Below, piece by piece: positions 39,968-52,166 of a stretch of DNA of 64,000 nt. A program made the translations under genes and the position numbers. The notes below the pieces were generated by a model. It had not been told where the DNA came from and ran no database searches. It saw only the letters and a list, made by a program, of their open reading frames with translations. The first letter of the stretch is position 1; the number at the start of each line of letters is the position of its first letter. The DNA is from an uncultured cyanobacterium (GTDB lineage Bacteria > Cyanobacteriota > Cyanobacteriia > CAKZMO01): NCBI GenBank assembly GCA_963719515.1, contig CAVRCJ010000011.1:64001-128000 (forward strand). Direction: 5' to 3'.

Positions 39968-40078
39968 GTTCCTGTATCTGAATCGTATGTGAGTTAATGC
40001 TAAGGCTGTAGCGGTGATACTACTTTACCCAGTGTAGCTCTCCCAATCGGGAAAAGGCCTTTACAGCCGCCGCACCCA

Positions 40079-40158
40079 ATAGCGCCCTCTGCCGCCCCTT
40101 CTCCCGATAGCGCCCTCTGCCGCTCTTTCTCCCGATAGCGCCCTCTGCCGCCCTTTCT
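40079..40158 (+). repeat. 28-bp tandem repeat, about 3 copies
   Basis: ATAGCGCCCTCTGCCGC(C/T)C(C/T)TTCTCCCG units in the ftsH-glyS divergent intergenic region. Confidence 0.85.
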
Positions 40159-40214: not shown

Positions 40215-42368
40215 ATGGCGACGTTTTTACTTGAGGTTGGGACGGAAGAACTTCCCGCTGAGTTCCTAGACACGGCGTTTTCCCAGTGGCGATCGCAGAT
40301 TCCAGCCAGCCTCGCCGAGGCGTTTTTGACCCCCGAGGCGATTCACATCTACGGCACCCCGAGGCGGCTGGTGCTGCTGCTGGAAGGCCTGCCCGAGCAG
40401 CAGCCCGACCGCACAGAAGAGGTCAAAGGTCCCCCGGCCCAGGCGGCCTTTAAGAACGGCAAGCCCACCAAGGCGGCAGAGGGGTTTGCCCGCTCTCGGG
40501 GGGCAACGGTGGAGGACTTAGAGGTGCGTGACACGGGCAAAGGCTCGTTTGTATTCGTCATTCAGCGGATTGCGGGCCGCAGCGCGGCGGCGGTGCTCGC
40601 CGAGCAAATTCCCGACTGGGTGCTGGGGCTTGAAGGCAAGCGGTTTATGCGCTGGGGGGACGGCGACCTGCGCTTTCCGCGCCCCATCCGCTGGCTCATG
40701 GCCCTGCTGGACGACCAGCTCTTGCCCATCACCCTAGAAAACGGCTCCGAGGTCATCCACAGCGATCGCCTGTCCTACGGCCACCGGGTGCTCTCCCCCG
40801 GCGCGATTGAGATTGCCCAGGCCGAGGGCTACTTGAGCGCCATGCGGGCCGCCCGCATTGAAGTGGACCCCGAGCGACGGCGAGAGGCGATCGCCGAGCA
40901 GACCCAGCGGGCCGCCAAGTCTGTGGGGGGAGTAGCCCGCATGTCGCCGGAGCTGCTGCAGGAGGTGGTGAATCTGGTGGAAACCCCCACCGCCGTTGTG
41001 GGCACCTTTGCCCCCGAATTCTTGGAGGTTCCCTCAGAGGTGAGCATTACGGAGATGGAGAGCCACCAGCGCTACTTCCCGGTGCTGGCGTCTGAGTCCT
41101 CGGGTACCCTGCTGCCCTACTTCATCACTATTTCCAACGGCGACCCCGACAAGGCCAAAATCATCGCGGCGGGCAACGAGCGCGTGATTCGCGCCCGGCT
41201 CTCCGACGGCAAGTTCTTTTTTGACCTCGATCGCAAGCAGACCTTGGAGGCCTACTTACCCCAGCTGGAAACGGTCACCTTCCAGCAGGACATTGGCTCA
41301 GTGCGCCAAAAAGCCGCGCGTATTGAGGCGATCGCGGAGCTGATTGGGGGCCAGCTGGGCATCGCCGAACCGGAGAAAACCCAGGTGCAGCGGGGGGCGC
41401 TGCTGTGCAAAGCGGACCTCGTGACCCAAATGGTGGGGGAGTTTCCGGAGCTGCAGGGGGTAATGGGGCAAAAGTACGCCCTGGCCAGCGGCGAGGACGA
41501 GGCCGTGGCCACCGCCATCATGGAGCATTACCTGCCTCGGGGCGCGGACGACGCCATGCCCCAAACCCTAGTGGGCCAGGTGGTGGGTCTGGCCGACCGC
41601 CTCGATACCCTGGTGAGCATCTTTAGCCTGGGCCGGGTGCCCTCGGGCTCCTCCGACCCCTTTGCTCTGCGGCGCGCCGCCAACGCCGTCGTCAGCATTA
41701 TCTGGCAGGGAAACCTGGCGCTCAACCTGCGGCAGCTGATGGCAGAGGCCATCACCAGCTTCACCCAGCACAACGCGATCAAAGCGGGCGATGCCGCCTC
41801 CCTGCAGGGACAGCTCGAAGCCTTCTTTCAGCAGCGGCTGCAGACCCTGCTGGCCGAGATGGGCATCGACTACGACCTGATCAACGCCGTGCTGGGAGAA
41901 GGCGATCCCGAGTACGCCGCCCGCGCCCTCAGCGACCTGCTCGACGGACGCGATCGCGCCCGGTTCCTGCAGCAGATTCGCCAAGATGGCATTCTGGAGA
42001 GCATCTACGAAACGGTGAACCGCGCCTCCCGGCTGGCGGCCCAGTCGGACTTTGACACCGCCCCGCTGGACCCCGCCCAGGAAATCGACAAGGCCCTGTT
42101 TCAGCAGGATTCGGAGCAGGCTTTCTACGACGCCCTGGTGACCCTAATGCCAAAGACTCAGCAGGCCCAGGCCAGCCGAGACTACGGGGCGCTGGTGGCA
42201 GCCTTGGGGGAAATTGCCCCCGTGGTGAGCCAGTTTTTCGACGGGCCGGACAGCGTTTTGGTGATGGCCGACGACCCGGCGGTGCGGCGCAACCGGCTCA
42301 CCCTGCTGGGGCTGCTGCGCAACCATGCGCGGGTGCTGGCGGATTTTGGGGCGATCGTCAAGCAGTGA
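40215..42368 (+). CDS. glyS: Glycine-tRNA ligase beta subunit
   Basis: [19 protein letters not shown]...[41 protein letters not shown]. Confidence 0.97.
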
Positions 42369-42669
42369 GCGTTGGCCGTTGTGTAGCAAATCTTACGGCT
42401 GGCGGCAAATTCTGACGTCGGTATTACAGTGCTAAAAGTCATAGGGTTTCCCGTTTGGTTTAATACTGGGCAATTCCCTAAGCGCTTAAATGCCTTGCTT
42501 ATCGGTGCCGCCGATTACTGGTTCAGAATTTGTGCAAGTAATAACTTATGTAAAACTAAAGCTTTATTTATGTCTTTAGACAGTCTTAAAAGCTTACTAT
42601 GCTTCGCTATATTTTAGACATGGAAGAAGTCGCGACTGTTCATCAAAATACCTTACTTTGGAGACAAGC

Positions 42670-43050: not shown

Positions 43051-44406
43051 ATGAAGCTTAACGTGAGCAATCGAGAACGGTGTAAAGCTCTAAAGCAAGC
43101 GCTGAGCACTTTTGTGCTAGATGCCGAAGGAGACTTGGCGATCGCTTTAGAGACATACAGTTCCCGACGTTTGAGGCAGTGGTCAGACGCAAAGCTTCAA
43201 GGCATTGATTGTTCTGGTTTAGCAATTGATATGTTTATCACCGAAGGTCAAGTTAATGGCCAATCGGTGCTAGATATTTTTGCAGCGAACCAGCCCAGAC
43301 TATCTGAGACAGATCAAGCGCTTGTTAAGGGCTGGAAGGACACTTTCAACGGTCTGTTTGTCGTTCTTCAGGTCACCCCGCAGGGCTATGAGCTCATGAA
43401 CTGGCTGACTGAAAAGCAGTATTGGGTGCAGTCTAGCGGCCTACAATCAGAGGAACGGCTGGCTCGATTGTCTCCTGGTGAGATCGTTGCCGTTCGGCTG
43501 TCGCCCGTTCCAGAAGCTGATTGGATATTTTCAGGGCCTTTGCTGCTGTTAGGAAAGCTAGGAAAACCCAAGCTAGCTGTTGCTATTGGTAACTTTAAAA
43601 ACTGGTTCCCCAACTATCTTTATGGAGATGCCCCTGACCTTTTGGAGGAGGCCTGGAAATCGGTAAAGCACTACCACGATGAGTTTGTACAGTTCTTTGA
43701 AGCAGAGCGGGTTACGCTTTCAGGGTATGAGCTCAACAAAAAGCTGAACGCGTATCAAGAATTTGCTACTCAGCGCCAGCTAGAACGCACAGGGATAGAC
43801 AGCTCTAAGTCTTTGAAAGACCTGATGGACCAGGCTGGTGTGTCACAGGAAGAGGTTTCCGAATCGGTTGAATCCCTCGGGGCGGAGGGCCGCCAGGTGA
43901 AGCGCCTACTAGAGAGTTCAAAATCGGTGAAGATGGTGATGCCGCCTCTCAAGCTTCCAGATGACCTGCGCAAGGCGGAGGCGGTTACGGTGTTTGTCCA
44001 TCCGCGCTGGGGACAGATGATGTTGAAAGACTACGGGCAGATGACTCAGCTGCTTGAAGCCGCAGACGAGGCATCGCTAGCCAAGCTAGATCTGTTCGTC
44101 CATCGGTACCTCAAAAACGAGGCCGCGACTGCCTACGTTTGGCAATCCTTGGCTGAGGAGAATCCGGAGGCGCTAGAAGCGGCGCTCAGCCGGGTTCTTG
44201 ACCGCCCAGTTTCCCTTCAAGATGACCTAGAGAAGATTTTACTCGAGTTTGGAAAGTCCCTTGAACCGAAGCTTCCAGAGGTTGCCAGTGTCCCTGTTCA
44301 CCTGCACAACCTGTTTCAAGAGGCGCTGCAGGAGGTGAACGGTAGTTCATCGAAGAAAAAGGCAAAAGGCAAGCGGAAGCAAAAAGCTGGTTTTGCGGCT
44401 CTTTAG
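43051..44406 (+). CDS. Hypothetical protein (451 aa)
   Basis: Long ORF with a basic tail ending KAGFAAL; no family confidently recognised. Confidence 0.8.
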   Translation: MKLNVSNRERCKALKQALSTFVLDAEGDLAIALETYSSRRLRQWSDAKLQGIDCSGLAIDMFITEGQVNGQSVLDIFAANQPRLSETDQALVKGWKDTFNGLFVVLQVTPQGYELMNWLTEKQYWVQSSGLQSEERLARLSPGEIVAVRLSPVPEADWIFSGPLLLLGKLGKPKLAVAIGNFKNWFPNYLYGDAPDLLEEAWKSVKHYHDEFVQFFEAERVTLSGYELNKKLNAYQEFATQRQLERTGIDSSKSLKDLMDQAGVSQEEVSESVESLGAEGRQVKRLLESSKSVKMVMPPLKLPDDLRKAEAVTVFVHPRWGQMMLKDYGQMTQLLEAADEASLAKLDLFVHRYLKNEAATAYVWQSLAEENPEALEAALSRVLDRPVSLQDDLEKILLEFGKSLEPKLPEVASVPVHLHNLFQEALQEVNGSSSKKKAKGKRKQKAGFAAL

Positions 44407-44492
44407 CAAGGTTTAAGTCGCCCTTATTGACGGAGGTTGGGCTATCTCACTTTCGCCAAATTCGGCGATCGCGGCTTGATGACTGGCAGTAC

Positions 44493-44783
44493 TCACGCAG
44501 CACGTTGGATCTTGCTGAAGCAGAGCTCTAAGCCCTTTTTTAGGGCAGGCCCCAGGCTCACCTTGACCCCTGGTGCATCGGGGTACTCCAGCCACATCGA
44601 TGAGTCGGGAGAGAGCGAGCTCCACCCATATTGCTCTAATTGGCTTTGGCCTTTGTCGTTGAGGGTGTAGATTCTCTGCGATGTCCTCAAAACCACCAGC
44701 GCCTCTAAGCCGTAGTAGTCCGCATTGCGCTGCGTGTTGACTACTGCGTTGCCTTCGCTGTCGGACGACTCGAAGCCTACCAA
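44493..44783 (-). CDS. Possible hypothetical protein or gene fragment
   Basis: Protein-like composition; its upstream region abuts the glyS remnant. Confidence 0.35.
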   Translation of the reverse strand: MVGFESSDSEGNAVVNTQRNADYYGLEALVVLRTSQRIYTLNDKGQSQLEQYGWSSLSPDSSMWLEYPDAPGVKVSLGPALKKGLELCFSKIQRAA

Positions 44784-44814
44784 CCCACCTATCTTGACTC
44801 CCGCCTCGATCGCG

Positions 44815-45043
44815 AAGCCGAAGCGCCAACGGCAGACTGCAGCCCAAACTCAGCAGGCGGCCAAATCGGTGGGAGGGGTGGCCCGCACGGCACCGGAGCT
44901 GCTGCAGGAGGTGGTCAACCTGACAGAAACCACCACCGCCGTTGTGGGCACCTTCGTCCCTGACGTTAAGCAGTGAGCGCTGCTCGTTGTGTAGAAAATC
45001 TTACGGCTGGTGGCAAATTCTGACGTCGGTATTACAGTGTTAA
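44815..45043 (+). pseudogene. Degenerate, internally deleted second copy of glyS (internal piece plus 3' end) and its downstream flank
   Basis: [37 protein letters not shown] matches glyS at about 40895-41015. GTTAAGCAGTGAGCG...GTATTACAGTG matches 42357-42431. Confidence 0.88.
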
Positions 45044-45198
45044 CAGATATAGCAAAGGTCCTGATGCATTAGGACCTTTGCGCGTCTGGTTGCCTAGGCG
45101 ATGTCTAGCTTTAAGCCGAAAGCGTTGTCTTAAGCAACCCGGCCAGCGCAACCAATCGCCCAGCGCCCCAAGCAAGCTGCCCAAACCACCACCCCGCG

Positions 45199-45865
45199 AT
45201 GTGCCCCCAGACGATTTTGATTCTGTCGGCAAATCCTAAAGGCACCCCGGCCCTGCGCCTCGACGAGGAGGTGCGGGAAATCAAGGCGGGCCTAGAGCGA
45301 TCGCCCCACCGCGATTTGTTTCGCATTGAGCAGGCGGAGGCGGTGACGCCGCGAGACGTGCAGCGGGCGATGCTGAAGCATGAGCCGCAGAATTGTACAT
45401 TTTTGCGGCCACGGCAAGGGGGAAGACGGCATCTTGATGGAGGGCGTCGGCGGTCAGCCGCAGCTGGTGAGCGAGCGGGCGCTGTCGAAGCTGTTTGAGC
45501 TGTTTGCCGACGAGATTGACTGCGTGCTGCTCAACGCCTGCTACTCGGCGGTGCAGGCGCGGGGCATCGCTCAGCATATTGGCTCGGTGGTGGGGATGAG
45601 CAAGGCCATCGGCGATCGCGCGGCAATTGAGTATGCGGTGAGCTTTTACGATGCGCTGGGGGGTGGGCGAGATTTTGAGTTTGCCCATCGGCTGGGGTGC
45701 AATGCGATCGAGCTGATGGGGATTGACGAGGCGCTGGTGCCGGTGTTGGTTCAGAAGGGTGATGGCCTCCTTTCGTCTTCTGCGGCTGATACCGCTGGCG
45801 AAAGGTTGGGCGAAGGCTGCTCAGTCCCCCAAAATTGGGGGACTTTGACATTGGAAGCCCTCTAA
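45199..45865 (+). pseudogene. CHAT (caspase-like) domain gene with a frameshift near 45391
   Basis: ILILSANP...LRLDEE.REI in frame 1 continues as IVHFCGHG...VLLNAC...VVGM in frame 2. CCGCAG-A-ATTGTACAT carries one extra A. Confidence 0.85.
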
Positions 45866-45915
45866 ATCCCCCAATCGACGACCTTCGGTCACGCTCCGCG
45901 AAGGGAGACTTTGAC
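45824..45915. repeat. Cyanobacterial CCCCCAA/TTGGGGG hairpin repeat cluster
   Basis: GTCCCCCAAAATTGGGGGAC palindrome, GACTTTGAC twice, and a second CCCCCAA unit. Confidence 0.6.
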
Positions 45916-45928
45916 GTAGCTGACCCGC

Positions 45929-47527
45929 TTGAGCGGCCAGACTGCCCATGTCTTCGTCAGCTACAAGCGCGGCGTGGAGCCAGATGAGCGGGTGGCCAAG
46001 GCGATTTACGAGGCGCTCTCGCCTCAGCATGAGGTGTTCATTGACCAGACGATGCCGGTGGGCACCCGGTGGATGGAGCGCATCGATGCGGAGATTCAGC
46101 GATCGCACTTTATGGTGGTGCTGCTGTCAGCGCATTCGGTGCAGAGCGAGATGGTGATCCTGGAGCTGGAGAAGGCGCAGCACAACGCGAGCCATGCGGG
46201 ACGACCTAAGCTGCTGCCGGTGCGGCTGGGGTATCGGGAGCCGTTTCAGTATCCGCTGAGCGAGTATTTGAACCCGATTAACTGGGCTTTTTGGCAAGAC
46301 GAGGGGGATACGGCGCGGCTGGTGCAGGAGCTGGAGGGGGCGATCGCGGGGCAGCCGCTCACCATTGAGACCCAGGCGGCGAAAGACGAGCTGGTGACGC
46401 CGGAGCCGGACGCGGAGCCTATTGAGGCCCCGCCGCCCCCCATCGCTCAGCCCCATCAAGCTAGAGCCCATCAAGCTAGGGCCCATCAAGCTAGGGGCCA
46501 TCAAGCCAAAGCCCCAGAAAAGCTGGAGCTGCCGGAAGGCACCATGACCGTGGAGTCGCAGTTTTACGTGGCGCGGCAGGCAGACCGCATTGCCCTAGAG
46601 ACCATTGGCGAACGGGGGGTGACGCTGACGATTAAAGGGGCGCGGCAGGTGGGCAAAAGCTCGCTGTTGATTCGGGTGATGGCGGCGGCGCGGCAGGCGG
46701 GAAAGCGGGTGGCGTTTCTGGATTTCCAGATGTTTGACAAGACCACGCTGCACAGCGCCGACGCGTTTTTCTATCAGTTTTGCCTGTGGCTGAGCGATGC
46801 GCTGGAGGTGGAGGACGAGGTGGACGCCTACTGGCAGCGCCCGGAGGGCAACCGCCAGCGCTGCACCCGCTATATGCGACGGCACATTTTGCCGAAGCTG
46901 ACCGGGTCGCTGGTGCTGGCCATGGATGAGGTGGAGAGCATTTTTGATACGCCGTTTCGCACGGATTTCTTTGGCATGCTGCGCAGCTGGCACAACCAGC
47001 GGGCCAGTAGCGACTCCTGGCGCAAGATCGACCTGGCGCTGGTGACCTCTACCGAACCGTATCAGCTGATTGACGACCTGAACCAGTCGCCCTTCAACGT
47101 GGGGGAGGTGCTGGATTTGGAGGATTTCTCTATGGCCCAGGTGCTGGAGCTAAACCAGCGCCACGGCGAGACGCTGACGCCCGCTCAGGCGCAGCAGCTG
47201 ATGGGGCTGGTGAACGGCCATCCGTATTTGGTGCGCAAGGCGCTGTATCTGGTAGCGCGGGGGCGGATGACGGCGGCAGAGCTGTTTGACCAGGCGGCGC
47301 AGGAGCGCGGCCCGTTTGGCGATCACCTACGCTATCACCTGTTTCGCGTTTACGATAAGCCGGAGCTGGTGGCGGCGCTGCTAAAAATCATTCGCCAGCG
47401 CAGCTGCCCGGATGAGCGGCTGTTTTTCCGGCTGCGGGGGGCGGGGCTGGTGCGGCGCGACGGCCAGGCTATTGCGCCTCGGTGTGAGCTGTATGGGATT
47501 TATTTTCAGGAGCATTTGCGTGGGTAA
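45929..47527 (+). CDS. TIR domain plus AAA_35-type (STAND-like) NTPase
   Basis: HVFVSYKR..VFID...G..W...I...VVLLS..SV.SE.V..E; Walker A GARQVGKSS; Walker B LAMDEVE; QSPFNVG; GHPYL. Confidence 0.9.
   Translation: MSGQTAHVFVSYKRGVEPDERVAKAIYEALSPQHEVFIDQTMPVGTRWMERIDAEIQRSHFMVVLLSAHSVQSEMVILELEKAQHNASHAGRPKLLPVRLGYREPFQYPLSEYLNPINWAFWQDEGDTARLVQELEGAIAGQPLTIETQAAKDELVTPEPDAEPIEAPPPPIAQPHQARAHQARAHQARGHQAKAPEKLELPEGTMTVESQFYVARQADRIALETIGERGVTLTIKGARQVGKSSLLIRVMAAARQAGKRVAFLDFQMFDKTTLHSADAFFYQFCLWLSDALEVEDEVDAYWQRPEGNRQRCTRYMRRHILPKLTGSLVLAMDEVESIFDTPFRTDFFGMLRSWHNQRASSDSWRKIDLALVTSTEPYQLIDDLNQSPFNVGEVLDLEDFSMAQVLELNQRHGETLTPAQAQQLMGLVNGHPYLVRKALYLVARGRMTAAELFDQAAQERGPFGDHLRYHLFRVYDKPELVAALLKIIRQRSCPDERLFFRLRGAGLVRRDGQAIAPRCELYGIYFQEHLRG
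46452..46511 (+). repeat. 15-bp in-frame tandem repeat x4 in the TIR-NTPase linker
   Basis: CCCATCAAGCTAG(A/G)G units encoding HQARA-like peptides. Confidence 0.8.
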
Positions 47528-50500
47528 GCCAAACCGCAATATCTACACCCCTGGAGGCACGGTGCAGGCAGGGCAGGGCATCTATTTAGAGCGGCAGGCC
47601 GACGCGCAGCTGCTGCAGCTTTGCCAGGAGGGGGTGTTTGCCTATGTGCTGACTTCGCGGCAGATGGGCAAGTCGAGCCTGATGGTGCATACGGCGCGGC
47701 GGCTGGCGACCGAAGGGGTGGTGACCCTAATTGTGGACCTGACGGATGTGGGGGTGCAGGATGTGACGGCGGATGCCTGGTATCGGGGCTTTTTGCTGGA
47801 GATTGAGGCGAAGCTGGAGTCGCAGGAGCGGTTTTTGGATACCGATGTGTATGCCTGGTGGGAGGCGCACCACTATTTGACGGTGTCGCAAAAGCTGTCG
47901 CGGTTTTTCCGCCATGTGCTGCTGGAGGAGGTGGAGGGGCCGGTGGTGGTGTTTGTGGATGAGATTGACACGACCTTGAGCCTGGATTTTACGGACGACT
48001 TTTTTATTACGATTCGCTCGTTTTATACGGCGAGGGCGCAGGATGCGGCGTTTCAGCGGCTGTCGTTTGTGCTGATTGGGGTAGCGACGCCGGGGGATTT
48101 GATTGTGGACTCGAAGCGAACGCCGTTTAATATTGGCCAGCGGGTGGAGCTGACGGATTTTGGCTATGGGGAGGCGCTGCCGCTGGCGGCGGGGCTAGCG
48201 CTGGGGGGGACGGCTCTGGCTGGAGACGGGCCTGGAGGGACAAGCGCAGCGGGGCGGGAGCGGGAGGTTTTTGAGCGGGTGCTGCACTGGACGGGGGGGC
48301 ATCCGTATTTGACGCAGCGGTTGTGCATTGAGCTGGCGCGGTATGGAGGTGGGGGTGAGCCGACTGGTCTTACCCCCCTTAGTCCCCCCTTAGAAGGTGT
48401 GATAGAGCCTACACAAGCTGGTTTTACCCCCTCTAACTCCCCCTTAGAAGGTGTGATAGAGCCTACACAAGCTGGTTTTACCCCCTCTAACTCCCCCTTG
48501 CTAAGGGGGAGAACTGGAGGCTTCCGCGCAGCGCGTCCGCAGGATGCAGGGGAGTTAGAGGGGGTGAACCCGAACGCTGAACTCTCGGCCAAAACCGTTG
48601 ACCAAGTTGTCAGCCGCACCTTCTTTGGTGAGAAGAGCGAGCAGGACAACAATCTGCAGTTTGTGCGGGATATGCTGACTACTCGATCGCCTAACGTGCT
48701 GGAGGGGCTGGCGATTTACCGGGCGGTTTGGCGGGGGCGGCGGCCCGTGGTGGATGAGGAGCAGTCGATTGTTAAGTCGCATTTGAAGCTGTCGGGGGGG
48801 GTGAAGCGGCAGGGGCAGCGGCTGGTGGTGCGCAATGAGATTTACCGGCGGGTGTTTGATGGGCGGTGGGTGCGGGAGCATTGGCCGGAGGGGGTGTGGG
48901 AGCGGCTGAGGCCGGCGATGCCGTTGATTGCGGGGCTGACGGTGGTGGCGCTGGGGATGAGCGGGCTGGCGGCCTATGCAGTGGGGCAGCGGAACCGGGC
49001 AGAGCAGCAGACGGCACTTTTAGAAGAGGCACTACTGCGGGAAGAAGAGCAGCGGGAGTTTGCCTTGAATAAGGCAGAAGAGGCCGAGGCAAATGCGAAA
49101 CAAGCCAGGCAGAACGAAGCAGAGGCGACGCGGCAATCAACGCGGGCTGAGAAAAATTTGAAAGACGCCCAACTGGCTCAGCAGCAGGCGGAAGCGGCGA
49201 AGCTGGCGGAGCAGGGGCAGCGGCAAGAGGCTGAAACACAAACGGCTATTGCGCAAGAACAAACCACAATTGCGCAGGAGCAAACCGTTTTGGCAGAGCA
49301 GCGGCTTGAGGAAGCAGATTCTGCAACGCTCTTGGCAAAGCAACGGTTGAGTGAAGCCGATGCGGCGAAGCTGCAGGCTGAACAAGAAAGCCGCATTTCG
49401 CTGGCGCGGCAGCTTGCGGCACAATCAGAATACTCGCGACGTCAGCGACTTGATCTGTTCCCTCGAAGCATCTTGCTGGCAGTCGAATCGATGAAGCGGC
49501 TGATGGACTCATCCACATCCACCGCAGACACCCACCAAGCGCTCCATAGCCTAAAAACCTTGCCCCCCAAAGCATCCCGCATTGCCCATGAGGGGGCTGT
49601 CTATGACGTGCGGTTTAGCCCCGACGGGCGCTACCTGGCAACCGGCAGTAGGGACAATACGGCGCGGGTGTGGGACGTTGCGGCAAACCAAGAGGTGGCC
49701 CGCATTGCCCATGAGGGGTGGGTCGTTGACGTGCGGTTTAGCCCCGACGGGCGCTACCTGGCAACCGGCAGTGAAGACGGTACGGCGCGGGTGTGGGACG
49801 TTGTGGCAAACCAAGAGGTGGCCCGCATTGCCCATGAGGGGTCGGTCGTTGACGTGCGCTTTAGCCCCGACGGGCGCTACCTGGCAACCGGCAGTGAAGA
49901 CGGTACGGCGCGGGTGTGGGACGTTACGGCAAACCAAGAGGTGGCCCGCATTGCCCATGAGGGGTGGGTCGTTGACGTGCGGTTTAGCCCCGACGGGCGC
50001 TACCTGGCAACCGGCAGTTTGGACAATACGGCGCGGGTGTGGGACGTTGCGGCAAACCAAGAGGTGGCCCGCATTGCCCATGAGGGGTCGGTCTATGACG
50101 TGCGGTTTAGCCCCGACGGGCGCTACCTGGCAACCGGCAGTGAAGACGGTACGGCGCGGGTGTGGGACGTTGTGGCAAACCAAGAGGTGGCCCGCATTGC
50201 CCATGAGGGGTGGGTCGTTGACGTGCGCTTTAGCCCCGACGGGCGCTACCTGGCAACCGGCAGTGAAGACGGTACGGCGCGGGTGTGGGACGTTGCGGCA
50301 AACCAAGAGGTGGCCCGCATTGCCGAGGGGTCTGTCGTTGACGTGCGGTTTAGCCCCGACGGGCGCTACCTGGCAACCGGCAGTAGGGACAATACGGCGC
50401 GGGTGTGGGACGTTGCGGCAAACCAAGAGGTGGCCCGCATTGCCCATGAGGGGTGGGTCGTTGACGTGCGGTTTAGCCCCGACGGGCGCTACCTGGCAAC

Positions 50501-51800
50501 CGGCAGTTTGGACAATACGGCGCGGGTGTGGGACGTTGCGGCAAACCAAGAGGTGGCCCGCATTGCCCATGAGGGGTCGGTCGTTGACGTGCGCTTTAGT
50601 CCCGACGGGCGCTACCTGGCAACCGGCAGTAGGGACAGCACCGCCCGGGTGTGGGACATTGCGGCAAACCCAGAAGTCGCCCGCATTGCCCATGAGGGGT
50701 ATGTCGAAGACGTGCGCTTTAGCCCTGACGGGCGCTACCTGGCAACCGGCAGTAGGGACAATACGGCGCGGGTGTGGGACGTTGCGGCAAACCAAGAGGT
50801 GGCCCGCATTGCCCATGAGGGGTGGGTCGTTGACGTGCGGTTTAGCCCCGACGGGCGCTACCTGGCAACCGGCAGTTTGGACAATACGGCGCGGGTGTGG
50901 GACGTTGCGGCAAACCAAGAGGTGGCCCGCATTGCCCATGAGGGGTCGGTCTATGACGTGCGGTTTAGCCCCGACGGGCGCTACCTGGCAACCGGCAGTA
51001 GTGACAATACGGCGCGGGTGTGGGACATCGCGGCAAACCAAGAGGTGGCCCGCATTGCCCATGAGGGGTGGGTCGTTGACGTGCGGTTTAGCCCCGACGG
51101 GCGCTACCTGGCAACCGGCAGTAGTGACAATACGGCGCGGGTGTGGGACATCGCGGCAAACCAAGAAGTCGCCCGCATTGCCCATGAGGGGTATGTCCTT
51201 GACGTGCGGTTTAGCCCCGACGGGCGCTACCTGGCAACCGGCAGTTTGGACAATACGGCGCGGGGGTGGGACGTTGCGGCAAACCAAGAGGTGGCCCGCA
51301 TTGCCCATGAGGGGTCGGTCTATGACGTGCGCTTTAGCCCTGACGGGCGCTACCTGGCAACCGGCAGTGAGGACAACACGGCGCGGGTGTGGGACGTTGC
51401 GGCAAACCAAGAGGTGGCCCGCATTGCCCATGAGGGGAATGTCCGTGACGTGCGCTTTAGCCCCGACGGGCGCTACCTGGCAACCGGCAGTTGGGACAGC
51501 ACGGCGCGGGTGTGGGACGTTGCGGCAAACCAAGAGGTGGCCCGCATTCCGCATGATGAGAGCGTAGGAAGCGTGCAGTTTCACCCCACAAAACCCTACC
51601 TGCTCACCCGCAGCGGCAACGTCGCCGAAGTCTGGATGCTCGACCCCAACGACCTGATGGCCGAAGCCTGCCGCCGCCTCACTCGCAACCTCACCCTTGA
51701 CGAATGGCGACAGTACCTCGGCGACGAACCCTACGAGGCCACCTGCCCCGACCTCCCCCGCCTCGATCGCGAAACTGAAGCCCCAACCGCAAGTCGCTGA
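47520..51800 (+). CDS. AAA_35-type NTPase - TM - coiled coil - WD40 repeat protein
   Basis: GTG 47520 overlaps the upstream stop. Y.PGG.V, TSRQMGKSS, VFVDEID, RTPFNIG, WTGGHPYLTQRLC; one TM (LIAGLTVVALGMSGLAAYAV); E/Q/A-rich coil; 17 WD40 units; tail C..L.RNLT..EW..Y. Confidence 0.92.
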   Translation: MGKPNRNIYTPGGTVQAGQGIYLERQADAQLLQLCQEGVFAYVLTSRQMGKSSLMVHTARRLATEGVVTLIVDLTDVGVQDVTADAWYRGFLLEIEAKLESQERFLDTDVYAWWEAHHYLTVSQKLSRFFRHVLLEEVEGPVVVFVDEIDTTLSLDFTDDFFITIRSFYTARAQDAAFQRLSFVLIGVATPGDLIVDSKRTPFNIGQRVELTDFGYGEALPLAAGLALGGTALAGDGPGGTSAAGREREVFERVLHWTGGHPYLTQRLCIELARYGGGGEPTGLTPLSPPLEGVIEPTQAGFTPSNSPLEGVIEPTQAGFTPSNSPLLRGRTGGFRAARPQDAGELEGVNPNAELSAKTVDQVVSRTFFGEKSEQDNNLQFVRDMLTTRSPNVLEGLAIYRAVWRGRRPVVDEEQSIVKSHLKLSGGVKRQGQRLVVRNEIYRRVFDGRWVREHWPEGVWERLRPAMPLIAGLTVVALGMSGLAAYAVGQRNRAEQQTALLEEALLREEEQREFALNKAEEAEANAKQARQNEAEATRQSTRAEKNLKDAQLAQQQAEAAKLAEQGQRQEAETQTAIAQEQTTIAQEQTVLAEQRLEEADSATLLAKQRLSEADAAKLQAEQESRISLARQLAAQSEYSRRQRLDLFPRSILLAVESMKRLMDSSTSTADTHQALHSLKTLPPKASRIAHEGAVYDVRFSPDGRYLATGSRDNTARVWDVAANQEVARIAHEGWVVDVRFSPDGRYLATGSEDGTARVWDVVANQEVARIAHEGSVVDVRFSPDGRYLATGSEDGTARVWDVTANQEVARIAHEGWVVDVRFSPDGRYLATGSLDNTARVWDVAANQEVARIAHEGSVYDVRFSPDGRYLATGSEDGTARVWDVVANQEVARIAHEGWVVDVRFSPDGRYLATGSEDGTARVWDVAANQEVARIAEGSVVDVRFSPDGRYLATGSRDNTARVWDVAANQEVARIAHEGWVVDVRFSPDGRYLATGSLDNTARVWDVAANQEVARIAHEGSVVDVRFSPDGRYLATGSRDSTARVWDIAANPEVARIAHEGYVEDVRFSPDGRYLATGSRDNTARVWDVAANQEVARIAHEGWVVDVRFSPDGRYLATGSLDNTARVWDVAANQEVARIAHEGSVYDVRFSPDGRYLATGSSDNTARVWDIAANQEVARIAHEGWVVDVRFSPDGRYLATGSSDNTARVWDIAANQEVARIAHEGYVLDVRFSPDGRYLATGSLDNTARGWDVAANQEVARIAHEGSVYDVRFSPDGRYLATGSEDNTARVWDVAANQEVARIAHEGNVRDVRFSPDGRYLATGSWDSTARVWDVAANQEVARIPHDESVGSVQFHPTKPYLLTRSGNVAEVWMLDPNDLMAEACRRLTRNLTLDEWRQYLGDEPYEATCPDLPRLDRETEAPTASR
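48376..48566. repeat. In-frame repeat insertion: 54-bp tandem duplication plus inverted repeat
   Basis: CCCCTTAGAAGGTGTGATAGAGCCTACACAAGCTGGTTTTACCCCCTCTAACTC twice; ACCCCCTCTAACTCCCC pairs with GGGGAGTTAGAGGGGGT. Confidence 0.8.
49578..51542 (+). repeat. 16 near-identical 123-bp WD40-coding repeats (unit 7 lacks one codon); a divergent 17th unit follows
   Basis: Consensus RIAHEGxVxDVRFSPDGRYLATGSxDxTARVWDVAANQEVA. Confidence 0.97.
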
Positions 51801-52166
51801 GCTATGGACGGAACCATTGGCCCACCGTACCGCCAATAGACTGTCTCATCCCGCATCACGCTGATTGGCTACGCTTCGCGATCGCCCGCAGCTCAAGCGC
51901 GGGCTATTGAACGCCGTCCGCTCAAGCGGACTCCTGAGGGGAGGTCGATGCTCAGAATTTGGGCCAGAAGGTGCTTCAACCCACTTGAGTGGGTGTTTTC
52001 AGCTAGCCCACGATTTGTCTGCGGGTGGAGGTGAACGCACAGCCAAGCTGCTCATGAAAGGCCCACCCCCTATTTCCCAGCAGCGTCTTTATAGTCGTGG
52101 GTGCCCTAACAGAACGCGATCGCCAAGGGCAGGGCGCGACAGCAACGCCCCACCCTCTAGCCCGTT

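Follow-up and report, generated by a model that had tools for sequence, protein, structure and literature searches.

The stretch analyzed here, referred to as the window, comprises 64,000 nucleotides (nt) of an uncultured cyanobacterium of the lineage CAKZMO01 (assembly GCA_963719515.1, contig CAVRCJ010000011.1, positions 64,001 to 128,000). The host genome measures 5.28 Mb in 21 contigs and is 100% complete, and the genes of the window are cyanobacterial. Between positions 45199 and 51800 of the window, the forward strand carries two overlapping genes, and all features of the locus described below lie on this strand. Gene 1 combines a CHAT (caspase-like) domain, a TIR domain and a nucleoside triphosphatase (NTPase) that we term the executor type. 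Gene 2 encodes a second, sensor-type NTPase, which is followed by a hydrophobic helix, a stalk and a long WD40 repeat array. The locus is a new and damaged member of a named family, and by its architecture it is neither Avs nor bNACHT. The closest named record to gene 1 (L046) shows 97% identity.

In this genome, gene 1 is composed of three pieces rather than a single open reading frame (ORF), and the reading frame of CHAT is not continuous. The N-terminal CHAT piece (45199–45387, from ATG 45199) shares 47–79% identity with the N-terminal end of homologues in which the domains are fused. It is followed by an extra base (45388) that causes a +1 frameshift within CHAT and is absent from one sediment-metagenome contig (depth 3.7); the sediment-metagenome comparison covers contigs of four runs from a single study. 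The C-terminal CHAT piece (45389–45763) matches the CHAT models of Pfam (E = 1e-4) and PADLOC (chat, E = 2e-13) as well as the structure 8TL0 (E = 1e-4). It harbors the catalytic His of the GHG motif (45410-12) and the Cys of the NAC motif (45539-41), both of which the initial annotation, made from the same DNA, had recognized. The following CHAT–TIR linker (45764–45928) is over-long, containing two stops in the CHAT frame (TAA at 45863-65, then TAG at 45917-19) and a short dispersed repeat; a 38–42 nt piece of the linker has two further copies elsewhere in the genome. The distance from NAC to the TIR start is 139 codons here versus 80–137 (median 102) in 53 fused homologues. The TIR–NTPase ORF (45929–47527, TTG start) shares its frame with the C-terminal half of CHAT.

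The TIR domain (45929–46330), with a possible TTG start lacking a close Shine–Dalgarno sequence, matches TIR_2 (E = 5e-20) and keeps the conserved Glu of the initial annotation (Glu79, at 46163-65). Searched with the family profile, it matches the TIR of Cat1 (9MUD, E = 9e-7), and TIR alone found no match among the PDB sequences. The linker to the NTPase contains a 15-nt tandem repeat (HQARA x4, 46452–46514), of which relatives have one copy fewer. The executor-type, STAND-like NTPase (STAND, signal transduction ATPases with numerous domains; 46523–47527) includes helical and winged-helix domains and carries Walker A (GARQVGKS), Walker B (LAMDEVE) and GHP motifs. As judged from the sequence, CHAT cannot be made whole in this assembly and TIR–NTPase may still be produced from TTG 45929, so that this copy would be half-disarmed or dead. 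Intact natural copies exist (L032 and P0003). Programmed frameshifting at 45388 was ruled out, as there is no slippery run and one relative lacks the base; a naturally separate CHAT gene is unlikely, given the fused form of P0002-P0005, the four closest homologues of full length.

Homologues of gene 1 were taken as the best 120 of 3654 hits, with 7996 candidates scored. These 120 comprise 58 CHAT–TIR–NTPase proteins, 55 TIR–NTPase proteins (some with another front domain), 5 NTPases alone and 2 double-NTPase fusions, so that TIR is present in 115 and CHAT in 58 of this near subclade. All 51 homologues having the His motif of CHAT also have the Cys. The TIR Glu is found in 103 of the 120; in 15 the pattern did not match, and 2 have other residues. 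Further domains found before TIR in the near subclade are trypsin, PNP, EAD7, cyclase and kinase.

Gene 2 starts at GTG 47520, which lies 8 nt inside the end of gene 1 (GTGGGTAA), exactly as initially annotated. The junction (47508–47527) includes AGGAG located 7 nt upstream of this GTG, and an identical 8-nt overlap occurs on an Abditibacteriota plasmid. ATG 47412 was ruled out as the start, since it would imply a 108-nt overlap without homology and GTG 47520 has the AGGAG. The gene is open over 1426 codons with its motifs intact. Its sensor-type, STAND-like NTPase (47520–48899) contains Walker A (TSRQMGKS) and Walker B (FVDEID) motifs, and is interrupted by an in-frame insertion of dispersed repeats (48345–48585; a 54-nt tandem repeat and inverted arms) with 45 BLAST hits in its own genome, self-hits included. 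The insertion is disordered in the structural model, with a predicted local distance difference test score (pLDDT) below 50 at residues 284-342. A predicted single transmembrane helix, N-in/C-out, follows at 48927–48983 (residues 470-488, a 19-mer with a Kyte–Doolittle (KD) score of 1.86), and then an Ala/Glu/Gln-rich stalk that is likely a coiled coil by composition (48984–49575). The array of 16 near-identical WD40 repeats (49576–51556; 123-nt unit, 16.1 copies, 92% matches, one codon missing from repeat 7) is terminated by a divergent last blade and a C-terminal cap with two cysteines (51557–51800, stop at 51800). A reverse-strand ORF at 49551-51836 was dismissed as a shadow of the array.

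Both NTPases match Pfam AAA_35 (PF14516), with E = 1e-109 for gene 1 and E = 1e-28 for gene 2, which upholds the claim of two AAA_35 NTPases in overlapping genes. They are paralogues with 27% identity over 326 columns. The Walker A and B motifs of both genes are conserved among homologues, and the GHP (GxP-type) motif is invariant. The AlphaFold models reach a pLDDT of 93 for the gene-1 and 80 for the gene-2 NTPase. The former is closest in fold to two archaeal STAND-type ATPases, first 2QEN (Z = 21.4, root-mean-square deviation 4.2, 309 aligned) and then 2FNA (Z = 20.7), and the same two structures are again the top two for the latter. [quoted passage not shown] A PDB sequence search with the NTPase returned RecA Walker-A matches only. 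The P-loop Walker motifs, together with a modeled helical GxP region, winged helix and AAA+/Orc-Cdc6-like fold, indicate STAND NTPases.

The modeled fold agrees with a place in the MNS clade, a group of STAND NTPases whose nearest relatives are by definition the archaeal SSO/MJ-type ATPases. In this clade, the Npun2340/2341 family, reportedly described by Leipe et al. in 2004, consists of two paralogous subfamilies encoded by adjacent cyanobacterial genes, as its name implies. Because of the fold and the pairing, we infer that AAA_35 is the Npun2340/2341 family; many Nostoc homologues are among the matches. The likeness comprises two paralogous STAND-like cyanobacterial NTPases, here both matching AAA_35, the archaeal ATPases SSO1545 and PAB2304 as nearest solved folds, and the TIR, caspase, trypsin, kinase and EAD domains. 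In line with this, Kaur et al. [quoted passage not shown]

The two NTPase types occur together throughout the family. Ten near-complete genomes, selected for containing hits, were counted by hand. Of their 28 executor-type genes, 23 are accompanied within 2.5 kb by a sensor-type gene in the same orientation, and one more has a divergent partner. A quick tree of 25 pairs separates executor and sensor types into two clades with 100% support in the Shimodaira–Hasegawa-like approximate likelihood-ratio test (SH-aLRT). Over these 25 pairs, the distances of partners correlate with a Spearman coefficient of 0.81, compared with a mean of 0.42 in within-genome shuffles, none of 2000 being as high. Among the best 120 executor homologues, 118 have no second NTPase attached. 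P0021 and P0041 each unite both types in a single chain. From these sequence data, the pairing of the two NTPases looks obligate. In addition, the residue before the PFN motif differs between the subfamilies, being Arg200 in gene 2 (48118-48120) versus Gln188 in the gene-1 NTPase; it is Arg in 17 of 25 sensors and Gln in 21 of 25 executors. Arg200 of the sensor NTPase is a possible one-way trans-acting arginine. A complex prediction of the two NTPases scored 0.02 against a mark of 0.32 and carries no weight either way.

Of 81 cyanobacterial genomes, 52 contain AAA_35, small genomes among them, and none of 14 controls does. The family appears patchy and mobile, with matches in 44 plasmid records, the best three at 61% identity and located in Abditibacteriota and Chloroflexota, and with the gene order reversed on one of them; 50,697 phage records gave no match.

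The initial annotation placed the WD40 propeller across the membrane from the NTPase, and this topology is supported by several features of the homologues. Of 118 new homologues of gene 2, 109 contain the end motif of the NTPase, and a motif count classified 45 of these as WD40-type. A 19-mer with a KD score of at least 1.6 follows the NTPase in all 45 WD40-type proteins, versus 5 of 45 with such a segment inside the NTPase body. The Lys/Arg excess around the helix lies on the N side in 28 of them, on the C side in 2, and is tied in 15. Moreover, 45 of 47 short-tailed WD40 proteins have two or more Cys in the tail, and their propellers are nearly Cys-free, which suggests a disulfide formed in an oxidizing compartment. 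Four homologues (P0200, P0211, P0213 and P0228) carry a solute-binding domain after the propeller, as assigned from the source name and a reading of the sequence, and CHASE2 domains follow the helix in other sensors. A location of the WD40 sensor outside the cytoplasmic membrane is therefore well supported as a prediction. Outward STAND sensors have been proposed before, since for a NACHT protein Dore et al. predicted a lectin sensor located in the periplasm (PMC10907252).

The 41-residue repeats have a mean identity of 94% to their consensus, and they vary mainly at sites 7, 9, 25 and 27 (5, 5, 5 and 3 residues, respectively). A minimum-change count covering 33 of the 41 codons places 16 non-synonymous changes at these four codons (10 sites) and 4 in the remainder (65 sites), corresponding to a rough count-based omega of ~3.5 versus 0.14. 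The same four codons in three other arrays (10-14 repeats) give an omega of 2.6-2.9 (p = 0.014-0.054). The variation among the repeats is thus non-random. The spacing of the variable sites (0, +2, +18, +20) is that of HET-E positions 12, 14, 30 and 32, which are high dN/dS sites of that protein (PMC12222747). With repeats more than 80% identical and diversified at predicted surface sites, the array resembles the HET-E type. Dyrka et al. report conserved repeats of this kind for NLRs of bacteria and suggest that they diversify in a similar manner (10.1101/2020.01.06.895854).

In our reading, which we rate as having an even chance of being correct, the pair is a transmembrane relay of sensor and executor that, in the near subclade, triggers cell death upon non-self recognition. 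A ligand on the top faces of the propellers would cluster or reorient the gene-2 protein, and the change would travel through the stalk and the helix to its cytoplasmic NTPase. This NTPase would then nucleate an ATP-dependent mixed oligomer with the gene-1 NTPase. The clustering would activate TIR, by NAD+ cleavage or production of a signal nucleotide, and in intact relatives also the CHAT protease, and the TIR and caspase-like domains would kill or arrest the cell. The likely trigger would be a periplasmic or cell-surface protein, such as a phage tail or ejection protein, an effector of a predator or competitor, or a non-kin surface protein. Of the sensor/executor pair proposed in the initial annotation, the coupling of two STAND-like NTPases, one bearing the effectors and the other the repeats, is supported; the annotation had overlooked that the family is very common and already named, that in many relatives signaling domains take the place of death domains, that the repeats resemble the diversified ones of HET-E, and that none of the four pairs of this genome is intact.

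Several observations weigh against this reading. The four variable sites were first spotted in the array of this locus, which makes its p = 0.001 post hoc, and of seven other arrays two (6 repeats each) have an omega of about 1 with no excess and two are unscorable, having too few near-identical repeats. Linkage alone can produce the co-divergence of partners. A scan of 20 of the 28 executor genes, leaving out three CHAT or TIR executors of G036, found 6 Ser/Thr kinases (one with TIR), 2 helix–turn–helix (HTH) proteins, 1 GGDEF and 1 CHAT, and the other 10 have no N-terminal Pfam hit. Three of seven scanned non-WD40 sensors are CHASE2 proteins, and a TIR executor has a PAS–GAF partner in L097. 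PADLOC matched 10 of 66 neighbors at 17 loci, mostly with partial or generic-looking hits and without a control set, and no Avs or bNACHT model passed in the dated NCBIfam and PADLOC libraries. The TIR domain, being constant while the preceding domain varies, may be an adaptor. An alternative is a general transmembrane signaling relay, a STAND analogue of the two-component systems that involves no cell death, in which CHAT would process a specific target and TIR would serve as adaptor or second-messenger maker. Kinase, HTH, GGDEF and cyclase outputs, CHASE2, PAS–GAF and solute-binding inputs, the occurrence in 52 of 81 genomes including small ones and a defence-island context not seen among the 66 neighbors (PADLOC, no control) all favor such a relay, and Lee et al. 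describe STAND defence and non-defence clades as interspersed (PMC13581612). We nevertheless consider it somewhat unlikely, because the near subclade joins TIR to a caspase, a trypsin, PNP or EAD7, effectors with which conflict systems have been listed (PMC8195603), the repeats are diversified at surface sites, and plasmids carry the pair across phyla at 61% identity.

The hydrophobic helix might not span the membrane, in which case the two genes would together encode one receptor of an Apaf-1-like or Avs-like kind, located entirely in the cytoplasm. The KD score of the helix is modest here, 6 of 21 sensors in a wider set lack a 19-mer at KD 1.7 (15 have one), which also weighs against the transmembrane relay, and the bacterial STAND receptors tested so far detect inside the cell (PMC13581612). 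Conservation of the helix, the charge bias, the Cys pair and the fusions to solute-binding and CHASE2 domains make this arrangement highly improbable. A separate question is whether the present copy is a decaying pseudogene pair without present function, whatever its relatives do. Gene 1 has a frameshift and two stops, both genes contain repeat insertions, and one repeat codon is lost. Moreover, all four AAA_35 pairs of the genome are broken (2 events at this locus, 3 frameshifts in the pair on contig C10, and 1 event in each of two pairs on contig C3), giving 7 events versus ~1 expected (Poisson p ~1e-4), and a same-genus copy (L035) has a stop in TIR. The expectation derives from control orthologues, of which 5 of 80 are broken, one being the C10 pair; the controls are conserved rather than accessory genes, and two of the C10 breaks, located at 5-base runs, may be assembly errors. 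In addition, the TIR–NTPase ORF and gene 2 are both open and keep their motifs intact, TIR–NTPases without CHAT make up 55 of the best 120 homologues, and the extra base is missing from a contig of the population. On balance, complete loss of function appears quite unlikely.

If the transmembrane relay of sensor and executor holds, a switch made of two STAND ATPase chains could pass a signal across a membrane, and surface receptors under diversifying selection would exist in filamentous bacteria. A wider proposal, possible rather than probable in our view, is that such pairs are widespread bacterial cell-surface immune receptors, in which outward, disulfide-capped and diversified WD40 sensors signal through a heteromeric STAND pair to killer domains of the TIR and caspase-like types, and in which one executor could serve several sensors. 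They would then detect enemies or non-kin cells prior to entry, and constitute a bacterial counterpart of the sensor/helper NLR networks. The significance lies in the family (3654 hits among the 7996 candidates scored), of which this locus is one damaged member.

The architecture was compared with known systems. Like Avs and bNACHT (PMC13581612, PMC10907252), the pair has a STAND switch, a repeat sensor and a TIR or protease effector; those systems are single-chain, cytoplasmic and found in defence context, whereas here sensor and effector reside on two chains and a membrane helix is predicted between NTPase and sensor. With the paired and helper NLRs (NAIP/NLRC4, RRS1/RPS4 and the NRC network), it shares linked sensor and executor NTPases and one executor with several sensors, but it belongs to another STAND clade, has no leucine-rich repeats and places its sensor, by prediction, outside the membrane, so that the resemblance is one of analogy only. 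The fungal HNWD proteins HET-D and HET-E (PMC12222747) likewise have WD40 repeats of more than 80% identity with few diversified surface sites at the same spacing, but HET-E is a single cytoplasmic NACHT protein, and its positions 10 and 11 are invariant here. The excerpt of PMC8195603 mentions neither a pairing mechanism nor an outward topology nor diversified repeats for the Npun2340/2341 family. In the literature searched, as represented by excerpts, the family is named once (PMC8195603) and an experimental study was not found; the pair is undescribed in the excerpts of PMC7159879 (Kaur et al. 2020) and PMC11119718, and there is no AAA_35 or Npun entry across 7 files of PMC13581612, the clade tables lying outside the search.

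The closest solved structures to the family profile are 8TL0 for CHAT (E = 2e-16) and the Cat1 TIR filament 9MUD for TIR (E = 9e-7). The CHAT of 8TL0, which we take to be a SAVED–CHAT filament, and the TIR of Cat1 are activated by oligomerization, and both systems are CRISPR-linked and gated by cyclic oligonucleotides. In the present system the proposed gate is the NTPase pair instead of cyclic oligonucleotides.

Other members of the family show variant arrangements. Tandem sensor-type NTPases occur in 40 of the best 120 sensor-type hits. P0121-P0156 and P0159 have two or three of them ahead of a hydrophobic helix, behind which lie TPR, WD40 or FGE-sulfatase domains, and several of these tandem-NTPase proteins come from Chloroflexota. 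One executor stands beside two sensors in L034, and in genome G076 (L094, C1:4596000-4615999) an HTH-bearing executor precedes four tandem sensors, three with long WD40 arrays. In the host genome of the window (G000), where a scan using gene 1 found 2 loci only, three further AAA_35 pairs, all of them frameshifted, lie at C10:327852-334900, C3:52755-55614 and C3:99275-102125 (L001-L003, L005, L007-L010). One of them joins a TIR executor with a TPR sensor, and two have uncharacterized, possibly helix–turn–helix N-termini, one of these preceding a GAF gene. At C11:225185-228956 (L011), a TIR–ATPase gene comes before one for a multi-helix membrane protein that has another ATPase region, a more distant arrangement of two genes.

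The locus lies 3' of glyS and is flanked by a small variable region and, by sequence reading, a cation/proton-antiporter-like gene. Positions 44760–44835 (forward strand) repeat the 3' end of gene 2 in degenerate form (76% over 67 nt, E = 1.5e-6), so that a direct repeat brackets the locus. Across this degenerate repeat, a metagenome contig of depth 3.5 links 44817 to 51775, and represents a possible empty allele without the locus. No sigma-70 promoter match was found across 44700-46100. Four genomes of the same genus (80-93% completeness) gave no counterpart to the stretch 43900-44850, which contains a DUF2511 gene and the end of a 451-residue gene that matches no Pfam model. Just upstream of the locus lie second copies of two parts of glyS, one internal and one from its 3' end (44845-45052 versus 40899-41017 and 42356-42444; 82% and 89%), bracketing a lower-GC region of 2.5 kb. 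Dispersed short repeats, partly palindromic and with many genomic copies, are located at 45036-45150, 48345-48585 and 51830-51940, and a 28-nt repeat occurs three times at 40075-40158, between ftsH and glyS.

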